From: a virus
Direction: 5' to 3' (one strand)
UHGV virus genome: UHGV-0085625
Length of the DNA stretch: 39,805 nucleotides
Positions 1 through 6,131 of the stretch are shown piece by piece. Position 1 is the first letter of the stretch, and each line of letters starts with the position of its first letter. The translations under genes and the position numbers were made by a program. The notes below the pieces were generated by a model. The model saw only the letters and a list, made by a program, of their open reading frames with translations, was not told where the DNA came from and did not search any database.

Positions 1-99
1 ATCATAATACAACAGCCGCCCTCCTCCCTGAGCTTCCAAGATATCAGAACTGTATGGTGGGATTCCTTGCTGCTTTGCCGTTTCTGAGAGCTTGGTATT
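1..99. repeat. Left terminal inverted repeat. It is the reverse complement of 39707..39805 (99 bp, single mismatch at position 56).
   Basis: Direct comparison of the window ends. Identity is exact over 55 bp, then one mismatch, then 43 more bp. It stops at position 99, 87 bp upstream of the XkdW-like gene. Confidence 0.9.
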
Positions 100-185
100 G
101 CGCACAATATGTAAGAAAATTCCGGGCCTGAAAGGGCCTTTTATAATACATAAAAATACAAATTATTAGAAAGGAAGGATGCCAA

Positions 186-473
186 ATGGAAAAAATCAAA
201 ATCCATGATACTGAATATGAAATCATCAGTATTATGCCGGTAGCCACAAACGTGCTGCAGATTGAATTTGTAGACACGGTTCCGGAAAAATGGGGAGATA
301 TCACCACATATACAGTTGGTGGGATGGAAGCCGGCTGCATCAGTGGATATGACACACTGTATCGTGCAGATGGTCAGATGATCTACCTGAGTAATGATGG
401 CAGTGTGTATGAGCCGCCAGAAGAGCAGGAGCTGATCAATAGGCCGATGCTGATCGAGGAGGCGGAAGGATAA
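186..473 (+). CDS. Small phage protein, XkdW-like by position (between tail fiber and lysis genes).
   Basis: 95-aa ORF with an AGGAAGG RBS. Its position matches PBSX gene order downstream of the tail fiber. Confidence 0.4.
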   Translation: MEKIKIHDTEYEIISIMPVATNVLQIEFVDTVPEKWGDITTYTVGGMEAGCISGYDTLYRADGQMIYLSNDGSVYEPPEEQELINRPMLIEEAEG

Positions 474-763
474 TGGAATACATACAGACGATCCTTGCGA
501 TTTGCGGAGGAATAAGTATCATAGGAGGAGCTGGTGCGGTTATCGTTAAGGTAATCAAGCCGGCTTTTCGCCTGACTGCGAGGGTGCAGAAATTAGAGGA
601 GCATTCAGACAAGGATTACAAAAGACTTGTCGCATTGGAGACTATGCAAAAACAGCAGTCTAAGAGTCTTGCAGCTCTGCTCAATCATCAGATCACTGGT
701 AATGGGATAGACACGATGAAGCAGATTCGAGACGAGCTGTTGGAATCTATTATAGACCAGTAG
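473..763 (+). CDS. Small membrane protein with a coiled coil (XkdX/XhlA-like, lysis-associated).
   Basis: N-terminal hydrophobic helix then a coiled-coil segment. ATGA start/stop overlap with the upstream gene. Sits immediately upstream of the holin. Confidence 0.4.
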   Translation: MEYIQTILAICGGISIIGGAGAVIVKVIKPAFRLTARVQKLEEHSDKDYKRLVALETMQKQQSKSLAALLNHQITGNGIDTMKQIRDELLESIIDQ

Positions 764-780
764 AAAGGAGGTGAGGAGCT

Positions 781-1011
781 ATGCTTAAAAACTGTGTATT
801 CCGAGCTGATGTGGATACCCGTCAGTGGATCCATGCGGCAGGCAGGAGAGCCATCAAGACCATGGCGCAGACATTTGTCGCAACCATCGGATCGGCAGCA
901 GTCATGGGAGAGGTCAACTGGCCTATGGTAGCCAGCGCATCCGTGTTGTCTGGCATCCTGTCGGTGGCAACGTCCATCGCAGGACTTCCGGAGCTGCCAG
1001 CCAAGACCTGA
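781..1011 (+). CDS. Holin.
   Basis: 76 aa with two hydrophobic helices and a GGAGGTGAG RBS. Located upstream of the endolysin. Confidence 0.6.
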   Translation: MLKNCVFRADVDTRQWIHAAGRRAIKTMAQTFVATIGSAAVMGEVNWPMVASASVLSGILSVATSIAGLPELPAKT

Positions 1012-1104
1012 GAGGAGGTGATCCGTAGGTCTCCCGATCCGGTCAGGGTCAGAGCCGGAAGGAACTACTATACAGCATTTAGAAGAAAGAGAGGATAAGA
1101 AACT

Positions 1105-1308
1105 ATGGCAAATTTAACAGGAAAACATCAGGACAAAATTCCAGGGATGGGAGGATACGTAAATGCAGGCCCAGATCTGCAACCCAAACAGCCGACACCG
1201 TATTTATACGATGCTCCGTGTGATGTACCGCATCCGGACAAGCATCAGAGTGGCGTTGGTGGTCCGTCTGATCGCAATAACAACGGTGTGGACGACAGCG
1301 GGGAGTAA
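1105..1308 (+). CDS. Hypothetical Pro/Gly/Asp-rich small protein.
   Basis: ORF with an AGAGAGGA RBS. Low-complexity composition, so the coding status is uncertain. Confidence 0.25.
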   Translation: MANLTGKHQDKIPGMGGYVNAGPDLQPKQPTPYLYDAPCDVPHPDKHQSGVGGPSDRNNNGVDDSGE

Positions 1309-1443
1309 AGCTGTGCGACGTCGCAACGTAGATAGGCCCCGGGATGCTCCTGAGGCCTATATTTTGATTGCGGCATAACTGCTGCTGTGCTATAATGCTG
1401 ATGTTACCGCCCCTATACTGGGAACAGAGAGGGGGTGTACAAC

Positions 1444-1530
1444 ATGGATCATGTTCTATCTTTTATTGTCGCTGTTGCGGCTGGTGTAGCCTGCCACTAC
1501 ATCATCAAATGGTTGGACAGCGATAAGTAA
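1444..1530 (+). CDS. Type I toxin-like 28-aa hydrophobic peptide (Fst/Ldr-like): MDHVLSFIVAVAAGVACHYIIKWLDSDK.
   Basis: Strong RBS (AGAGGGGGTG). Upstream TGcTATAAT extended -10 at 1388..1396. Single transmembrane helix with a charged C-terminus. Followed by a bidirectional terminator. Paralogous to the peptide at 2764..2847. Confidence 0.6.
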   Translation: MDHVLSFIVAVAAGVACHYIIKWLDSDK

Positions 1531-1582
1531 TCGGTAACCAGCCTGCGGGGTTAAGCCTTCCCGTAAAAAATAGGAATAGAAA

Positions 1583-1618
1583 ACCCGAAGGTGTACCAGA
1601 CCTCCGGGTTTTCGTTTG
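1583..1618. terminator. Bidirectional rho-independent terminator shared by the toxin mRNA and the convergent sRNA.
   Basis: 9-bp stem ACCCGAAGG/CCTCCGGGT with one mismatch, flanked by an A-run upstream and a T-run downstream. Confidence 0.6.
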
Positions 1619-1652
1619 TTGTCCAACATGGACTTGTTCTATCTTTTTGCCT
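1583..1652 (-). ncRNA. Predicted antitoxin sRNA for the type I TA locus 1 (RNAII-like).
   Basis: Minus-strand promoter TTGCAA(1687..1682)-N17-TATAAT(1664..1659). The transcript would contain the reverse complement of 1624..1648, which is a near copy of the toxin translation-initiation region 1440..1466. It would end at the shared terminator. Confidence 0.45.
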
Positions 1653-1748
1653 ACTGGCATTATAGCATATGCAGATTTTAATTGCAAGATACCTAAAAGT
1701 GGTTTTGTCCGGTTTTGTACCGGGCATTTTTTATTTGGAGAAAATACT

Positions 1749-2615
1749 ATGGAAAATACAGTAAAGAAACTGATCGACCAGGCCGCCCACTGGATTGGAT
1801 ATCTGGAAAAGAAAAGCAACGCCCATCTGGATGATTTTACCGTTAACGCCGGAAGTGGAAACTATACCTGCTTTGCAAGAGATTACAAGGAGCACACAGG
1901 ACAGAACCTGCAGGCCCAGCCATGGTGCGCTATGTTTGTATCAGAGGTATTTGCACAGACATTCGGATTGGAGACCGCCAAAAAGCTGTTGGGCGGCAAT
2001 CTGTACCATTATTGTCCGACAGGAGCCAATCAGTTTAAGAGGGCGGGCCGCTGGAGTTGGATTCCGGAGCCTGGAGCAGTGATCTTCTTCACCAACGGCC
2101 AGAGGGCTTATCACACAGGGATTGTGATCGAGGTAACATCCACCCGGGTCAAGACTATTGAGGGCAATACCTCAGGAGCTTCCGGCGTGATCGAAAACGG
2201 CGGCGGAGTGTGTCAGAAGTCCTACAGCAAGTCTTATGGGAAAATTCTGGGGTATGGTCTGCCGGACTGGTCTTTAGTATCAATGGAAGAGCAGGAAAAG
2301 AAATCCGGCTGGCAGCAGGAAGATGGTGGCTGGAGGTATTATCTTGGCAATGGTCAGCCGGTTCGAAATGACTGGTACTGGCATGAGGACAAGTGGTACT
2401 GGTTTGACGGCGCCGGCATGATGGTGTTCAATGTCTGGTATAAGTACAAGGATCATTGGTACTATCTGGGCGCTGACGGCGCCATGGTAACAGGCCAGCA
2501 GACCATCGACGGCAAGTGGTATATCATGGACGATCAGGGCCGGATGGTTGTGGAGCCGGTGACGCTTACTCCAGATCAGGATGGAGCGCTACAGTGGCCG
2601 GGACTGGCGGAGTAG
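1749..2615 (+). CDS. Endolysin: CHAP-domain peptidase/amidase plus C-terminal CW_binding_1 (choline-binding-like) repeats.
   Basis: Conserved Cys (QPWCAMF) and His (YHTGIVIEV) of a CHAP domain. Tandem GW/YY aromatic repeats follow. Start ATG 1749 with a GGAG RBS. The longer six-frame ORF starting at 1647 uses a TTG inside the TA repeat and is rejected. Confidence 0.85.
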   Translation: MENTVKKLIDQAAHWIGYLEKKSNAHLDDFTVNAGSGNYTCFARDYKEHTGQNLQAQPWCAMFVSEVFAQTFGLETAKKLLGGNLYHYCPTGANQFKRAGRWSWIPEPGAVIFFTNGQRAYHTGIVIEVTSTRVKTIEGNTSGASGVIENGGGVCQKSYSKSYGKILGYGLPDWSLVSMEEQEKKSGWQQEDGGWRYYLGNGQPVRNDWYWHEDKWYWFDGAGMMVFNVWYKYKDHWYYLGADGAMVTGQQTIDGKWYIMDDQGRMVVEPVTLTPDQDGALQWPGLAE

Positions 2616-2642
2616 AGAGTATACAAAGAAAGTATGATGTTC

Positions 2643-2680
2643 ACCCTCTGTTGAGAAAACAGCGGAGGGATTTTTTATTT
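2643..2680 (+). terminator. Rho-independent terminator after the endolysin gene.
   Basis: CCCTC...GAGGG stem followed by TTTTTT. Confidence 0.5.
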
Positions 2681-2763
2681 GCCAAAAAGTGGTGGAAAGC
2701 CGCATGATGCTGTGGTATTATAAATGTGCTGCCGTACCTCCAGCAGAAGGGAGGTGATTCTAC

Positions 2764-2847
2764 ATGAACGATAATATTTCAGCATTTATTATCTCTGTCG
2801 CAGCAAGTGTGGTTGGCTACTACATATGCAAATGGCTGGATAGATGA
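2764..2847 (+). CDS. Type I toxin-like 27-aa peptide, paralog of 1444..1530: MNDNISAFIISVAASVVGYYICKWLDR.
   Basis: GGGAGGTGA RBS. TGgTATTAT extended -10 upstream. Same hydrophobic-plus-KWLD architecture. Followed by a bidirectional terminator. Confidence 0.6.
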   Translation: MNDNISAFIISVAASVVGYYICKWLDR

Positions 2848-2898
2848 TGAACAGGCGGCAACAGCCTAAACGGATTGGCTCTCCGTAAAGAGCAAGAA

Positions 2899-2935
2899 AA
2901 ACCCCAGAGATGGCACCTCCGGGGTTTTTCGTTTT
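2899..2935. terminator. Bidirectional terminator of TA locus 2.
   Basis: CCCCAGAG/CTCCGGGG stem with one mismatch, A-run and T-run flanks. Confidence 0.6.
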
Positions 2936-2972
2936 GTTCTACATGAACTCTTTCAGCATTTATTTGGCTAAG
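2899..2972 (-). ncRNA. Predicted antitoxin sRNA for TA locus 2.
   Basis: Minus-strand promoter TTGACT(3004..2999)-N16-TATTAT(2982..2977). The transcript would contain the complement of 2935..2964, a near copy of the toxin translation-initiation region 2755..2789. Confidence 0.45.
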
Positions 2973-3360
2973 ATTATAATATGCCACTTCCGAGGAAAAG
3001 TCAACCGTTTCTTTTTGACCTGTGGAAAATCATAAAAGATAAAAAGGTAGGCAGTGTCAACCATTTGTCTACCTTGAGCAGATTCGTCTATAATATATAT
3101 GATGATACTATAGGTTTACAGATTTTCGGAAATGTAGATATATATTAGTAAATAAAGGGCTGTAGATGATTCTATAGCATACATAAATCATGCAAAATGT
3201 TACAGCTAAGCTTGGGTAATAACCCAATGGTTGGCGCTACTGTAGCTGTAGCTGTTTCGATTGAAGAAGCTGCAAAAGAAGGCAGATTCTAAGAAATCCA
3301 GTAAAATCAAGGATTTAAGCAGTACGGAAAAGTATACAAAAGTAGGAAAATGCACATAAC

Positions 3361-3410
3361 TTGTTTACTACTTGTTTATTATTTGATTACCGTATTTGTT
3401 TACCGTCAGG
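3361..3410. promoter_or_regulatory. Putative attP arm-type repeats (TTGTTTAC/TTGTTTAT x3), immediately 3' of int.
   Basis: Three direct repeats of TTGTTTA(C/T) sit between the int stop and the AT-rich region 3000..3360. Which part is the core attP cannot be told from this window alone. Confidence 0.3.
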
Positions 3411-3443
3411 TAGGGCTGAAAATTGGCCCTACCTGATTTTTTC
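3407..3443 (+). terminator. Plus-strand rho-independent terminator overlapping the int 3' end.
   Basis: 10-bp perfect stem CAGGTAGGGC/GCCCTACCTG followed by TTTTTT. It would block read-through from the lysis/TA region into antisense int. Confidence 0.6.
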
Positions 3444-4679
3444 AAGATCTGATCGCAGCCATTCCAGATCCCGGAGGGTGTAAACGGATTCTGTGATATC
3501 CTGGATTTTATGCCCCACCATCTCCTTTAACGCATATTCATCAACTTCGGCTTTCTTTGCCCTGGTGACGAAGGTATTTCGGGGATCATGAGGGCGGTGC
3601 TCTGGATTGAGATTAAGCGCTGCCATCACAGCCTTGAAACGATAGCTGTATTTATCATAGGTAATTTTATAAGAGCCGGCATGGGTTTGCCCCTTATCAT
3701 TAAAGAGGTATGGGCTTCCCAGAGACATGGCAATATCATAATTCTGTTTTACCAAGTCTCGGATTCTGGTATGGATTGGGACAATACGCTGCTTACCAGC
3801 ATCCGTTTTTATTCCGGCCTGCATATACCATTCTTCGAGATTGATCTCATCCAAACGGAGCAGGGCAAGTTCCTGAGGTCTCCATCCCATATAACATTGA
3901 ATCAGGATCCAGTCTATGTATTTCACTTTCCCGACATTTTCCCATAGGATGTTAAGCTCATTGTCTGAGAAGGGGATGTGGCTTCGCTTCGACGCTTCTT
4001 TTTCTTTCATAATGTCTTCCGATATATCAAATGTTCTGGCATAGTTCACGGTCACAATTTCATATTCCAGTGCATAGTCATACATCAAATTAAAGAGAGA
4101 TTTTATCCGTGCCTTTGTACCGGCGCTGGGAAATACCTTCTCACCTTTCTTTTTTCCGCGTGTTTCGATGCGGTATCCTTCGTCCATAACTCCCTTTATA
4201 TGCCTTGCCCGTACATCTTTTGCCCGCATCCGGTAGATGCTGGAACAGTAGGCCCAGGCGGATGTGATCGTACGAGCATAGCTTTCATCACAGGTGCTCA
4301 GGTAGGTATCGGTCCATTTTTCATAGAGTTCTTCAACGAGAATATCATCTTTAAGATCGTAAGGATTGCGGTTATAATCTATCAGGGCCTGATAAGCTTC
4401 GTTGTAAGTTGGAAAATAAGCTTTGGGCTTCAGCGGTTTCAGTATGGGTTTATTGAATTCTGTTTTTCCAACGCAGACTCGAGTCCAAAAGGGATTGCGC
4501 AGATTTTTGCCTTTTATTTCTGTGATGCTTCCGAAACCATTAGGCAGCCGTTTTCGTCTGGCACGTTTTTTATAATTGTTCTGGATAACCGTTCGATTCA
4601 ACGGATAACCGCAATGGGGGCAGGCCAGGGCCTTGTCACTGACTTGTAGCTGACATTCCGGACATTGAATCAGTGCCAT
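3429..4679 (-). CDS. int: Phage integrase (tyrosine recombinase) with an N-terminal zinc ribbon.
   Basis: CPECQ..CPHCG zinc ribbon. C-terminal catalytic residues HRPHDPRNTF..R and GHKIQDITESVYT (the R-H-R-Y set). AAGGAGG RBS. Confidence 0.9.
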   Translation of the reverse strand: MALIQCPECQLQVSDKALACPHCGYPLNRTVIQNNYKKRARRKRLPNGFGSITEIKGKNLRNPFWTRVCVGKTEFNKPILKPLKPKAYFPTYNEAYQALIDYNRNPYDLKDDILVEELYEKWTDTYLSTCDESYARTITSAWAYCSSIYRMRAKDVRARHIKGVMDEGYRIETRGKKKGEKVFPSAGTKARIKSLFNLMYDYALEYEIVTVNYARTFDISEDIMKEKEASKRSHIPFSDNELNILWENVGKVKYIDWILIQCYMGWRPQELALLRLDEINLEEWYMQAGIKTDAGKQRIVPIHTRIRDLVKQNYDIAMSLGSPYLFNDKGQTHAGSYKITYDKYSYRFKAVMAALNLNPEHRPHDPRNTFVTRAKKAEVDEYALKEMVGHKIQDITESVYTLRDLEWLRSDLEKIR

Positions 4680-4859
4680 AATTATTCCTCCTTATTGTTG
4701 CGACGTCGCACATTTTTGGGTATAAAAAATACACCTGTACAGGTGTAAGGAGGTATGGTACAATATGGGTGTTGAGATCATATTGTATTTGGCCTCCGTG
4801 GCCTGTACAGAATTTATCTAAAAGCCGTTCCTGTTGGCGCAGGGGCGGTTTTTGCGTTA

Positions 4860-6131
4860 TTAAGCAGACTGTTCCTGTTTTAAAATTTCAAGAGTTTCAT
4901 TATATTCTTTAGCCACTGGAATTCGTGTGAATTTGACTGTATTATTAAAATTTTCTTTAACTACCTTTTCTATATCATCCAAAGATACTTTAAAAAATTC
5001 TTTTCTTAAATTTACTCGATTTACACTTTGTTTTTCAAAAGCTTGATGTAAAGCTGTTTCAAGAGCAGGGGCATCGTCCGAGAATATCATGGCGTGTACA
5101 TCAAATTCAAAGGGGACAGAAGCACTTCCAAGTTCTTTTATACGATCCATAGGCTCTAGGCGACGTGTCATTCCTATTTTATATACATCCTGACCAAAAG
5201 AGCCAAGATTAGAAATAATATAGACATAACCTGCACGAGCATTGGCCTCACGTTCCAGAACGGTTGCTTTGTCAGCTTCTAATTGTTTTAACTTATCATT
5301 TAATTCTTTGATTTTATCGATGTATAATTGTTTTTCCACATCATCTTGGGTTTTTTGCATATACTGTATAAGACGATTGATTTCATTGGAACATTGGGTC
5401 TGGTCTTTTTCGAGTTTGGCCTTTTGACGTTCTATTTCTCTTCGAACCTTCTCTTCCTCTATCATTTGCTCTTTGATAGCCTTTTGCTGTTCGCGTTCCT
5501 GCTCTTTTTTTAATTCATATGTGTAAACAAGATTCAGTTCATCTAATTTATATTGTAGGAGTTTCTGATTCAGTTGTACATTATCAACGTCAAATAATTT
5601 ATTGAGAGTTTCAAAGGATTTTGTTATTTTGTTTCTTGCAGAATCAATGGTTTTAATGGAAAGATTTAATAAAACATTATCGCATTCAGCATTAAAGCAG
5701 CGCAGTATCTGTTTGGTATTGGCATTTAACATTTTTTTAGGAGAATTTCCGTATGTCTTTATAAAATTGGAATTTTTGATATAATTTTGCTCCTCCAATT
5801 TTAGAACAGCTAAATTATTTTTGCATTCTTCAGATGAAATCCCATCATAATCAGTAAAACAATAATGCTGGCACAAAACATCACCTTCTAAGACATTGAT
5901 TGCATCACATAGATTATTGTAGTCTGTTTTTTTATTATCAATTTCCTTTTCAAGATTAGTGATTTTATTATTTAAGGAATCGATATCCCCATATTTTTTT
6001 TCCAGTTTATTATTTTCAATCATTTGTAATGTGAGCAATACTATTCCTACAATAATAGAAATAATAGAGGGCCAAAACATAAATAGAATACAAATAAACC
6101 ATGTTTGAAGATACCACTTTCTTTTTTTCAT
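4860..6131 (-). CDS. Membrane-anchored coiled-coil protein with C-terminal DUF4041 and T5orf172 (GIY-YIG-like) domains. Candidate defense or superinfection-exclusion moron.
   Basis: N-terminal transmembrane helix, a long KE-rich coiled coil, and a C-terminal GYVYIISN...YKIGMTRR...PFEFD...LHQAF motif typical of T5orf172. AT-rich gene lying between int and the immA/immR pair. Confidence 0.7.
   Translation of the reverse strand: MKKRKWYLQTWFICILFMFWPSIISIIVGIVLLTLQMIENNKLEKKYGDIDSLNNKITNLEKEIDNKKTDYNNLCDAINVLEGDVLCQHYCFTDYDGISSEECKNNLAVLKLEEQNYIKNSNFIKTYGNSPKKMLNANTKQILRCFNAECDNVLLNLSIKTIDSARNKITKSFETLNKLFDVDNVQLNQKLLQYKLDELNLVYTYELKKEQEREQQKAIKEQMIEEEKVRREIERQKAKLEKDQTQCSNEINRLIQYMQKTQDDVEKQLYIDKIKELNDKLKQLEADKATVLEREANARAGYVYIISNLGSFGQDVYKIGMTRRLEPMDRIKELGSASVPFEFDVHAMIFSDDAPALETALHQAFEKQSVNRVNLRKEFFKVSLDDIEKVVKENFNNTVKFTRIPVAKEYNETLEILKQEQSA

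Follow-up and report, generated by a model that had tools for sequence, protein, structure and literature searches.

Predicted par/Fst-like type I toxin-antitoxin modules on either side of the endolysin gene of a temperate Lachnospiraceae phage

Type I toxin-antitoxin (TA) loci of the par type are recognised at the RNA level by convergent promoters, a bidirectional terminator, two direct repeats (DRa and DRb), a hairpin that hides the Shine-Dalgarno sequence (SD) of the toxin mRNA (RNA I) and a helix that hides its 5' end. The toxins of the Fst/Ldr superfamily have a transmembrane helix, a conserved tryptophan, a charged tail and a P/D/S/T-XXX-G(C) motif, and the proline of PXXXG is essential for the toxicity of Fst and Lpt (Weaver 2020, PMC7472228). 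We analysed UHGV virus genome UHGV-0085625 (39,805 nt, here called the window), a temperate phage genome of about 40 kb, in which two small loci, each with an open reading frame (ORF) of 27 or 28 codons, lie on the two sides of the endolysin gene. All five RNA-level features were found, by sequence-level evidence, and each locus is very probably a par/Fst-RNA II-type type I TA module of a temperate Lachnospiraceae phage.

The likeness to par of pAD1 (Enterococcus faecalis) covers the convergent promoters, the common bidirectional terminator, two direct repeats over the start codon, the SD-hiding 5' hairpin, the helix at the RNA I 5' end, a toxin of about 30 residues with a single transmembrane helix and a charged tail, and the use of GTG or TTG starts, which were present in 59 of 159 loci of the present family. 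The two differ in that no peptide similarity was detected by hidden Markov models (HMMs), and in that the PXXXG proline and a conserved U-turn are lacking here. The present family also has a tryptophan, in KWLD, where Fst has a valine; RNA II is predicted at about 80 nt rather than about 40 nt, and the modules are borne by a phage rather than a plasmid.

A first-pass annotation of the window had called the loci Fst/Ldr-like. We kept the Fst/RNA II-like part of this name but not the Ldr part. In Ldr/Rdl the small RNA (sRNA) lies opposite the 5' part of the toxin gene, with regulation like that of hok/sok (PMC2887945, PMC7472228). The antisense promoters of the present loci are instead found past the 3' end of the toxin gene, and the loci were therefore classed as Fst/RNA II-type.

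Duplicated start regions and antisense promoters

It had been proposed that the translation-initiation region of each toxin is duplicated just past its terminator. Two duplicated blocks were found at each locus, with identities of 92% (DRa) and 100% (DRb) at locus 1 and 100% for both blocks at locus 2 (Table 1). The local-alignment scores of the duplicates were 40 and 37, above the maximum of 20 reached by shuffled sequences. Promoters and duplicates were counted in the 159 related loci with enough flanking DNA, and 153 of these carried a copy of the start region 64-94 nt (about 85 nt) after the stop codon. Of 34 distinct start regions, 31 scored highest with their cognate copy, which ranked second for the other 3, and the mean alignment score was 34.5 for cognate pairs versus 14.9 for non-cognate pairs. 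The spacing of the two blocks in the copy deviated from that in the gene by a small indel, most often of 1 nt, in 94 of 97 distinct start regions, which argues for a maintained pairing element with a built-in bulge and not for a decaying gene fragment. Start codons at the canonical position were ATG in 84 loci, GTG in 33 and TTG in 26 (L001-L160), and in some loci, such as the L060 group, a GTG in the gene is matched by ATG in the downstream duplicate.

The folding and pairing check suggested by the first-pass annotation gave an open 5' tail in the predicted antitoxin RNAs and cognate duplexes over the toxin starts. The predicted duplex of the RNA II-1 tail with window positions 1435-1471 had an energy of -36.2 kcal/mol, compared to -15.2 ± 2.7 kcal/mol for shuffled tails, and that of the RNA II-2 tail with positions 2754-2791 had -32.9 kcal/mol. 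The crossed pairs gave -15.9 and -17.0 kcal/mol, no better than shuffled tails. Because the DR sequences differ and the crossed duplexes are at the level of the shuffles, the two modules should not cross-talk.

The near-consensus promoters described on the opposite strand were present at both loci; TTGCAA-N17 was read correctly at the first, and the spacer of the second is N17, not N16. When the minus strands of the loci were aligned, the -35 element, the 17-nt spacer, the extended -10 element and the first transcribed bases were conserved. The antisense promoter scored at least 9 of 12 in 153 of the 159 loci, 135 of these with TG. On the toxin side, an extended -10 promoter and a G-rich SD precede each ORF, as had been stated. 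The motif TGnTAnnnT was found 4-8 nt upstream of an invariant GTT in 105 of 116 distinct relatives, and its poor -35 fits a weaker toxin promoter.

Both terminator hairpins are long and GC-rich, with an A-run before and a T-run after, and could act on both strands in the way first described. Compensatory changes were observed in 7 of 9 terminator stem pairs across the relatives. The region as a whole has 9 promoter-like sites versus 4.3 expected, and 8 terminator-like sites versus 2.2 expected.

A 27-nt string, GCATATGCTATAATGCCNNTAGGCAAA, was exact in 97 of 165 loci. It takes in the -10 region of the antitoxin promoter, the palindrome GCATATGC and the start of the transcript, and the toxin codons vary in the same loci; its conservation exceeds what a promoter alone would need. 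No orphan antitoxin copies were found in the window when sought with the invariant motif.

Table 1. Features of the two loci and of the neighbouring genes in the window. RNA I and RNA II are predicted transcripts; DRa' and DRb' are the downstream copies of DRa and DRb.
Feature	Position	Strand	Sequence	Remarks
Toxin-1 ORF, 28 aa	1444..1530	+	MDHVLSFIVAVAAGVACHYIIKWLDSDK	One hydrophobic helix, KWLD, charged tail; subfamily A (HYIIKWLD)
Toxin-1 promoter	1388..1396	+	Extended -10 TGcTATAAT	No good -35; direct reading
SD, locus 1	1431-1437	+	GGGGGTG	
DRa + DRb, locus 1	1436..1464 (1436-1448, 1452-1464)	+		SD end, start codon, codons 1-7; predicted RNA II-1 target
Terminator, locus 1	1579..1613	Both		Bidirectional, intrinsic; common to RNA I-1 and RNA II-1; compensatory stem changes
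DRa' + DRb', locus 1	1620..1647 (1620-1632, 1635-1647)	+		Start-region copy, 1 nt shorter, out of frame; template of predicted RNA II-1 5' tail
Antitoxin-1 promoter	1687..1659	-	TTGCAA-N17-TATAAT	With TG
27-nt motif	1672..1646	-	GCATATGCTATAATGCCAGTAGGCAAA	Holds antitoxin-1 -10 region
RNA I-1, toxin mRNA, ~215 nt	1403..1617	+		SD in 5' hairpin of single-sequence fold; fold z-score -3.7; predicted ends
RNA II-1, antitoxin sRNA, ~80 nt	1572..1652	-		Unstructured 5' tail, then terminator hairpin; from fold, predicted ends
Toxin-2 ORF, 27 aa	2764..2847	+	MNDNISAFIISVAASVVGYYICKWLDR	Subfamily B (YYICKWLDR)
Toxin-2 promoter	2693..2721	+	TGGAAA-N17-TATTAT	With TG; extended -10 TGgTATTAT at 2713-2721
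SD, locus 2		+	GGGAGGTG	
DRa + DRb, locus 2	2758..2790 (2758-2769, 2777-2790)	+		
Terminator, locus 2	2896..2930	Both		Bidirectional
DRa' + DRb', locus 2	2937..2964 (2937-2948, 2951-2964)	+		Spacing 5 nt shorter than in toxin gene
Antitoxin-2 promoter	3004..2976	-	TTGACT-N17-TATTAT	
RNA I-2, toxin mRNA, ~208 nt	2728..2935	+		SD in 5' hairpin, 5'-3' helix in minimum-free-energy fold; fold z-score -3.8
RNA II-2, ~80 nt	2889..2969	-		From fold
Holin (Phage_r1t_holin)	781..1011	+		Context
Endolysin	1749..2615	+		CHAP domain and choline-binding repeats; context
Endolysin's own terminator	2644-2669			
Tyrosine integrase	3429..4679	-		Context

Toxin mRNA structure and the peptide family

In the predicted RNA I-1, the 5' arm GTTACCG (1403-1409) pairs with CGGTAAC (1532-1538), and the anti-SD CGCCCCT (1408-1414) pairs with the SD. 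The first helix recurs in the relatives, where the seven bases at the start of the transcript are complementary to a heptamer around the stop codon and both sides co-vary (GTTACCG/CGGTAAC in 90 loci, GTTGTCC/GGACAAC in 27, GTTGCTC/GAGCAAC in 11 and GTTGTCA/TGACAAC in 8). In a register-free test this 5'-3' helix was perfect in 93% of cognate loci versus 26% of non-cognate pairs. The anti-SD and SD shift together from CCCC/GGGG to CUCC/GGAG, with a CG to UA change in 14 sequences.

A structure that we specified ourselves, consisting of the two helices and the terminator, was evaluated on a 61-sequence alignment (A3). It was 83.8% paired versus 72.9% in shuffles, and its covariation score was 0.373 versus 0.174; none of 500 shuffles reached this score and all slid controls were lower. 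From the MAFFT alignment, RNAalifold retrieved no more than the terminator and a helix in the coding region. In some classes MAFFT had shifted the co-varying 3' arm into different columns, and for this reason the register-free and specified-structure tests were used. The loop of the SD hairpin (window 1417-1430; A3 columns 23-30) holds GG(T/C/G)AAC, which is not strictly conserved. It might be a second, local partner for the RNA I 5' end (GTTACC or GTTGTC), perhaps forming first during transcription.

The two peptides, described in the first-pass annotation as paralogues of 27-28 residues with a KWLD(S/R) tail, were confirmed at their positions and are 54% identical, with F, I, VAA, YI and KWLD in common. 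Their relatives split into a large subfamily A (…CHYIIKWLD…, like locus 1) and a small subfamily B (…YYICKWLDR…, like locus 2; relatives L010, L013, L014 and L080). Throughout the family a run of about 18 hydrophobic residues leads into an invariant K, W, L and D, and the tails are DSDK or R. The layout of the Fst/Ldr superfamily, with a transmembrane helix, a conserved tryptophan and a charged C-terminal tail, is thus present. Entropy by codon position was 6.8/2.7/12.1, and changes fell mostly at third positions, which indicates that the toxin ORF is under coding constraint.

Back-translated peptide pattern scans found at least 123 relatives in viral contigs (IMG/VR) and at least 392 in bacterial contigs from a set with one genome per species. 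Among the organisms that were named, nearly all were Lachnospiraceae (Lachnoclostridium, Enterocloster, Blautia, Dorea, Roseburia, Hungatella, Mediterraneibacter), and 14 of the fetched loci had two copies. One public record labels a family member simply 'toxin', and tblastn of peptide 2 gave weak matches only, to unannotated gut phage records. Neither window peptide was called by gene callers on any integrated-prophage contig examined.

Two other assignments of the peptides were rejected. Matches to holin families were sub-threshold and at the level of composition (Pfam Phage_holin_6_1 with 3 of 23 members, best E 0.12; phrog_6918 with 8 of 23, best E 0.025). The Clostridioides difficile toxin family NF047374 was matched by 4 of 23 members, also sub-threshold (best E 0.005), and this too was probably composition.

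The uncalled ORFs and their absence from curated HMM libraries would fit the view that ORFs and repeats are non-functional, the copies being decayed remnants of a tandem duplication and the promoters having arisen by chance in AT-rich intergenic DNA. The comparative data contradict this view, and we consider it extremely improbable. The copy is always confined to about 29 nt around the start codon, its distance is fixed and it co-varies with its cognate gene; an oriented and near-invariant promoter follows it, and the ORF has a coding pattern of substitution while the RNA helices carry compensatory changes. With duplicates that co-vary with their cognate starts, a conserved antisense promoter and compensatory changes in the RNA I helices, the pAD1 par architecture first claimed for the loci is supported. 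The parts, their co-variation and the predicted pairing are shown at the level of sequence and comparison.

Several results weigh against the par/Fst-RNA II assignment. The helix motif across the family is A/S/T-XXX-G, in which the G is nearly invariant and proline is never present; set against P/D/S/T-XXX-G(C), peptide 1 has AVAAG and peptide 2 SVAAS, so that the proline of PXXXG is replaced in both. Neither window peptide was matched by the Fst models of Pfam or NCBIfam, searches with 23 members returned no Fst-family model in either library at E up to 10, and the family profile matched no solved Fst, PepA1 or LdrD chain in the PDB. Pairing of the SD in single-sequence folds was only modestly above the shuffled-leader control (0.84 vs 0.73). 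The YUNR U-turn was present in 16 of 89 RNA I and 7 of 89 RNA II terminator loops and is not conserved; of the window loops, only that of RNA II-1 has it, as CUGG. The motif is also absent from some par homologues (PMC7472228). Lastly, the Rfam model RF02442 (SpF66_sRNA) matched positions 2728-2939 with 26.9 bits (E 0.0016), under its gathering score of 42, and did not match locus 1.

The same model was matched full-length, with 42.6-61.7 bits, in 8 of the 31 related loci scanned. The covariance-model check proposed at the outset therefore succeeded for these eight relatives, which pass the gathering score, but not for the copies in the window. When we translated the consensus of RF02442, which Rfam labels only as an sRNA family, it gave …ILYFVCKWLDGKE, whose C-terminal motif is that of the present peptides. 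We take the interval between SP2168 and SP2169 of Streptococcus pneumoniae TIGR4 to be the fcsR-adcA region. Pneumococcal F66 maps to this interval (Mann et al. 2012, PMC3395615). Tandem Fst-A/Fst-B loci lie in the fcsR-adcA region, and Fst-B has a 65-75-nt antisense RNA and is toxic in E. coli (Fozo et al. 2010, PMC2887945). From these positions, SpF66 was taken as the Fst-A/Fst-B site. The pneumococcal loci resemble those of the window in their tandem copies and in an antisense RNA near the size predicted here, but they lie on the chromosome between fcsR and adcA rather than in the lysis cassette of a phage.

Two further systems invite comparison. SprA1/SprA1AS (PepA1) of Staphylococcus aureus is likewise Fst-type and on a mobile element, but PepA1 keeps the PXXXGC motif and has no sequence-level match to the present family. 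The type I TA systems of C. difficile prophages (NF047374, CD_typeI_toxin) also combine a small membrane toxin with an antisense RNA in prophages of Clostridia. Their toxins have about 50 residues and lysine-rich tails, and their antisense RNAs are overlapping and cis-encoded. A Clostridium bolteae peptide has been listed as 'Ldr/Fst-like' (Fozo et al. 2010, PMC2887945). The species now belongs to Enterocloster, and its peptide might be a member of the present family. The two loci are best described as two independent predicted modules of an unannotated branch of the Fst family in Lachnospiraceae and their phages.

Placement in lysis cassettes and at the prophage end

The numbering of the window opens at the lysis module, where the gene order is r1t-type holin, 67-aa ORF, locus 1, endolysin, locus 2 and, on the opposite strand, tyrosine integrase. 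An identical endolysin was recorded in 187 blocks of the assembly collection. The first-pass annotation had remarked that two copies around a lysin was a placement not seen described, and limited literature searches likewise found no description of KWLD peptides or of a type I TA system in a lysis module.

Among the relatives, the nearest upstream ORF of at least 90 aa was a peptidoglycan hydrolase (VanY/M15, Amidase_2, glucosaminidase, CHAP or ELLD) in about 20 of 103 non-redundant loci, and the nearest downstream ORF of that size was a Phage_lysozyme or M15 endolysin in 15 of 109. When the endolysin was downstream, the upstream gene was a holin from one of several unrelated families (phrog_1129, phrog_199, phrog_10091, r1t type), and the endolysins found in this order were of CHAP, Phage_lysozyme and M15 types. 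The holin-TA-endolysin placement is recurrent and not unique to this phage. It is this recurrent integration of the module between holin and endolysin that appears, within these limited searches, to be new; the type of system itself was already known. Many relatives have unrelated genes as neighbours, so the family need not have a role in lysis.

Where the endolysin is downstream, the distance from the antitoxin -35 to the endolysin ATG was 27-78 nt (62 nt for the window), and no sigma-70-like promoter was found on the plus strand between the two. As there is no room for an endolysin promoter, transcription of the endolysin presumably reads through the terminator of the module. A second terminator-like hairpin, TGTCCGGTTTTGTACCGGGCA followed by TTTTTTATTT, was observed at 1706-1736 (plus strand; hairpin with T-run 1706-1726); it separates the antitoxin-1 promoter from the ribosome-binding site of the endolysin. 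The window endolysin is thus preceded by two plus-strand terminators and no recognisable promoter. The closest relative, L001, carries the same hairpin.

This arrangement raises the question of whether the modules are built into the lysis programme, either in place of or in addition to a role in addiction. Transcription of the endolysin would then pass the TA terminator and meet the RNA II promoter head-on. In one version, late read-through would occlude the RNA II promoter and carry the toxin ORF, silencing RNA II and freeing the membrane peptide late as a trigger of lysis or a helper of the holin. In the other, RNA II would pair perfectly, as an antisense RNA, with the endolysin leader and act as a lysogeny-phase lock that keeps leaky lysis genes off in the lysogen. 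The recurrence of the order with unrelated holins and endolysins speaks for such a role, as do a peptidoglycan hydrolase as nearest large ORF on one side in about a third of the non-redundant loci, the 27-78 nt that leave no space for a sigma-70 promoter, and the weak PHROG holin matches (8 of 23 members, best E 0.025). A precedent is known from another type I family, in which hokW-sokW of prophage Sp5 accelerates lysis and raises phage release twofold (PMC8621323). That system, from E. coli O157, is also a type I TA locus of a temperate phage whose toxin assists lysis, but it belongs to the Hok/Sok family, has its sRNA opposite the 5' leader and works in a Gram-negative host. Each module here, however, has its own promoters and terminator, like a self-contained moron, and many relatives adjoin non-lysis and non-phage genes. 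In addition, locus 2 is located after the endolysin, at the end of the prophage, where accessory genes are often found. The similarity to holins falls short of significance, and the cassette already has an r1t-type holin. We regard wiring into the lysis programme as unlikely, and are equally doubtful that Lachnospiraceae phages of this group use the Fst-like module as a functional part of their lysis operon rather than carrying it as a passenger.

The same DNA was integrated as a prophage in three of the five places examined (L161-L163; contigs of 94-394 kb). Identity with the window stopped at about position 3292 in all three, marking the prophage-host junction (attR side); this makes locus 2 the final module ahead of the right end of the prophage. 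Beyond the junction were the host-like genes ToxN_toxin, Asp23, NusB and XseA. A 31-aa ORF that ends at the junction (window ~3197-3292; L161 ~5449-5544) seems to restore the 3' end of a host gene. ToxN_toxin, next past attR in the integrated form, is the toxin of a type III TA system.

A position of this kind would also suit abortive infection or superinfection exclusion in the service of the lysogen, in which an invading phage would stop host transcription, the short-lived RNA II would decay, and the toxin would kill the cell before the invader could finish its cycle. The accessory-gene positions in the prophage, the promoters resembling those of host sigma-70 and the ToxN_toxin gene just past the attR junction are compatible with this, and type I and type III TA systems have been reported to exclude phages; hok-sok against T4, and ToxIN, are among the cases cited in PMC8621323. 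A defence role nevertheless leaves the recurrent placement between holin and endolysin unexplained, and we judge exclusion to be quite improbable as the function of the modules.

Other observations concern the neighbourhood. A 423-aa protein adjoining the integrase (4860-6131, minus strand; gene call on L165) has SNIPE, T5orf172 and MUG113 domains and might have a nuclease-type accessory or defence function. A tRNA-Asn (GTT) gene is present in the phage at 16661-16735 (plus strand). In several relatives, tRNA genes (L001 5267-5340, L022 4654-4724, L023 5326-5408) and a sub-threshold tmRNA match (L074 6983-7281) were found 0.6-3 kb downstream of the TA module. These neighbours fit TA modules at prophage ends beside tRNA or tmRNA attachment sites. 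A megablast search of window positions 1-5000 against GenBank phages gave no match.

Proposed mechanism and significance

In the par/Fst-type reading that we prefer, a weak toxin promoter, with an extended -10 and a poor -35, would produce an RNA I of about 210 nt that inhibits itself through the SD/anti-SD hairpin at its 5' end and through pairing of its extreme 5' end with the heptamer after the stop codon. A stronger, convergent promoter would produce an RNA II of about 80 nt that ends at the same bidirectional terminator and whose 5' tail is the complement of DRa and DRb, that is, of the SD end, the start codon and the first 7-9 codons. Pairing of RNA II with RNA I, probably begun through the complementary terminator hairpins, would block ribosome entry. 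Once the supply of RNA II stops, the single-helix membrane peptide of 27-28 residues would be made and would damage the membrane. We infer the transcript ends, the relative stabilities of the RNAs, the toxicity and the biological role; the last is most likely prophage stabilisation or another accessory function, and a contribution to lysis or phage exclusion is possible.

The loci would add a large branch to the Fst/RNA II family, in dominant human-gut bacteria and their phages, that is mostly missed by gene finders and that no curated protein model captures. The results indicate that the SpF66 sRNA family of Rfam is a type I toxin mRNA and that it reaches beyond Streptococcus. Two copies in one phage that are predicted not to cross-react would offer a natural pair for the study of antisense specificity, and the insertion of the module between holin and endolysin provides a testable case of whether a type I TA system takes part in lysis control or rides in the cassette as a stabilising element.

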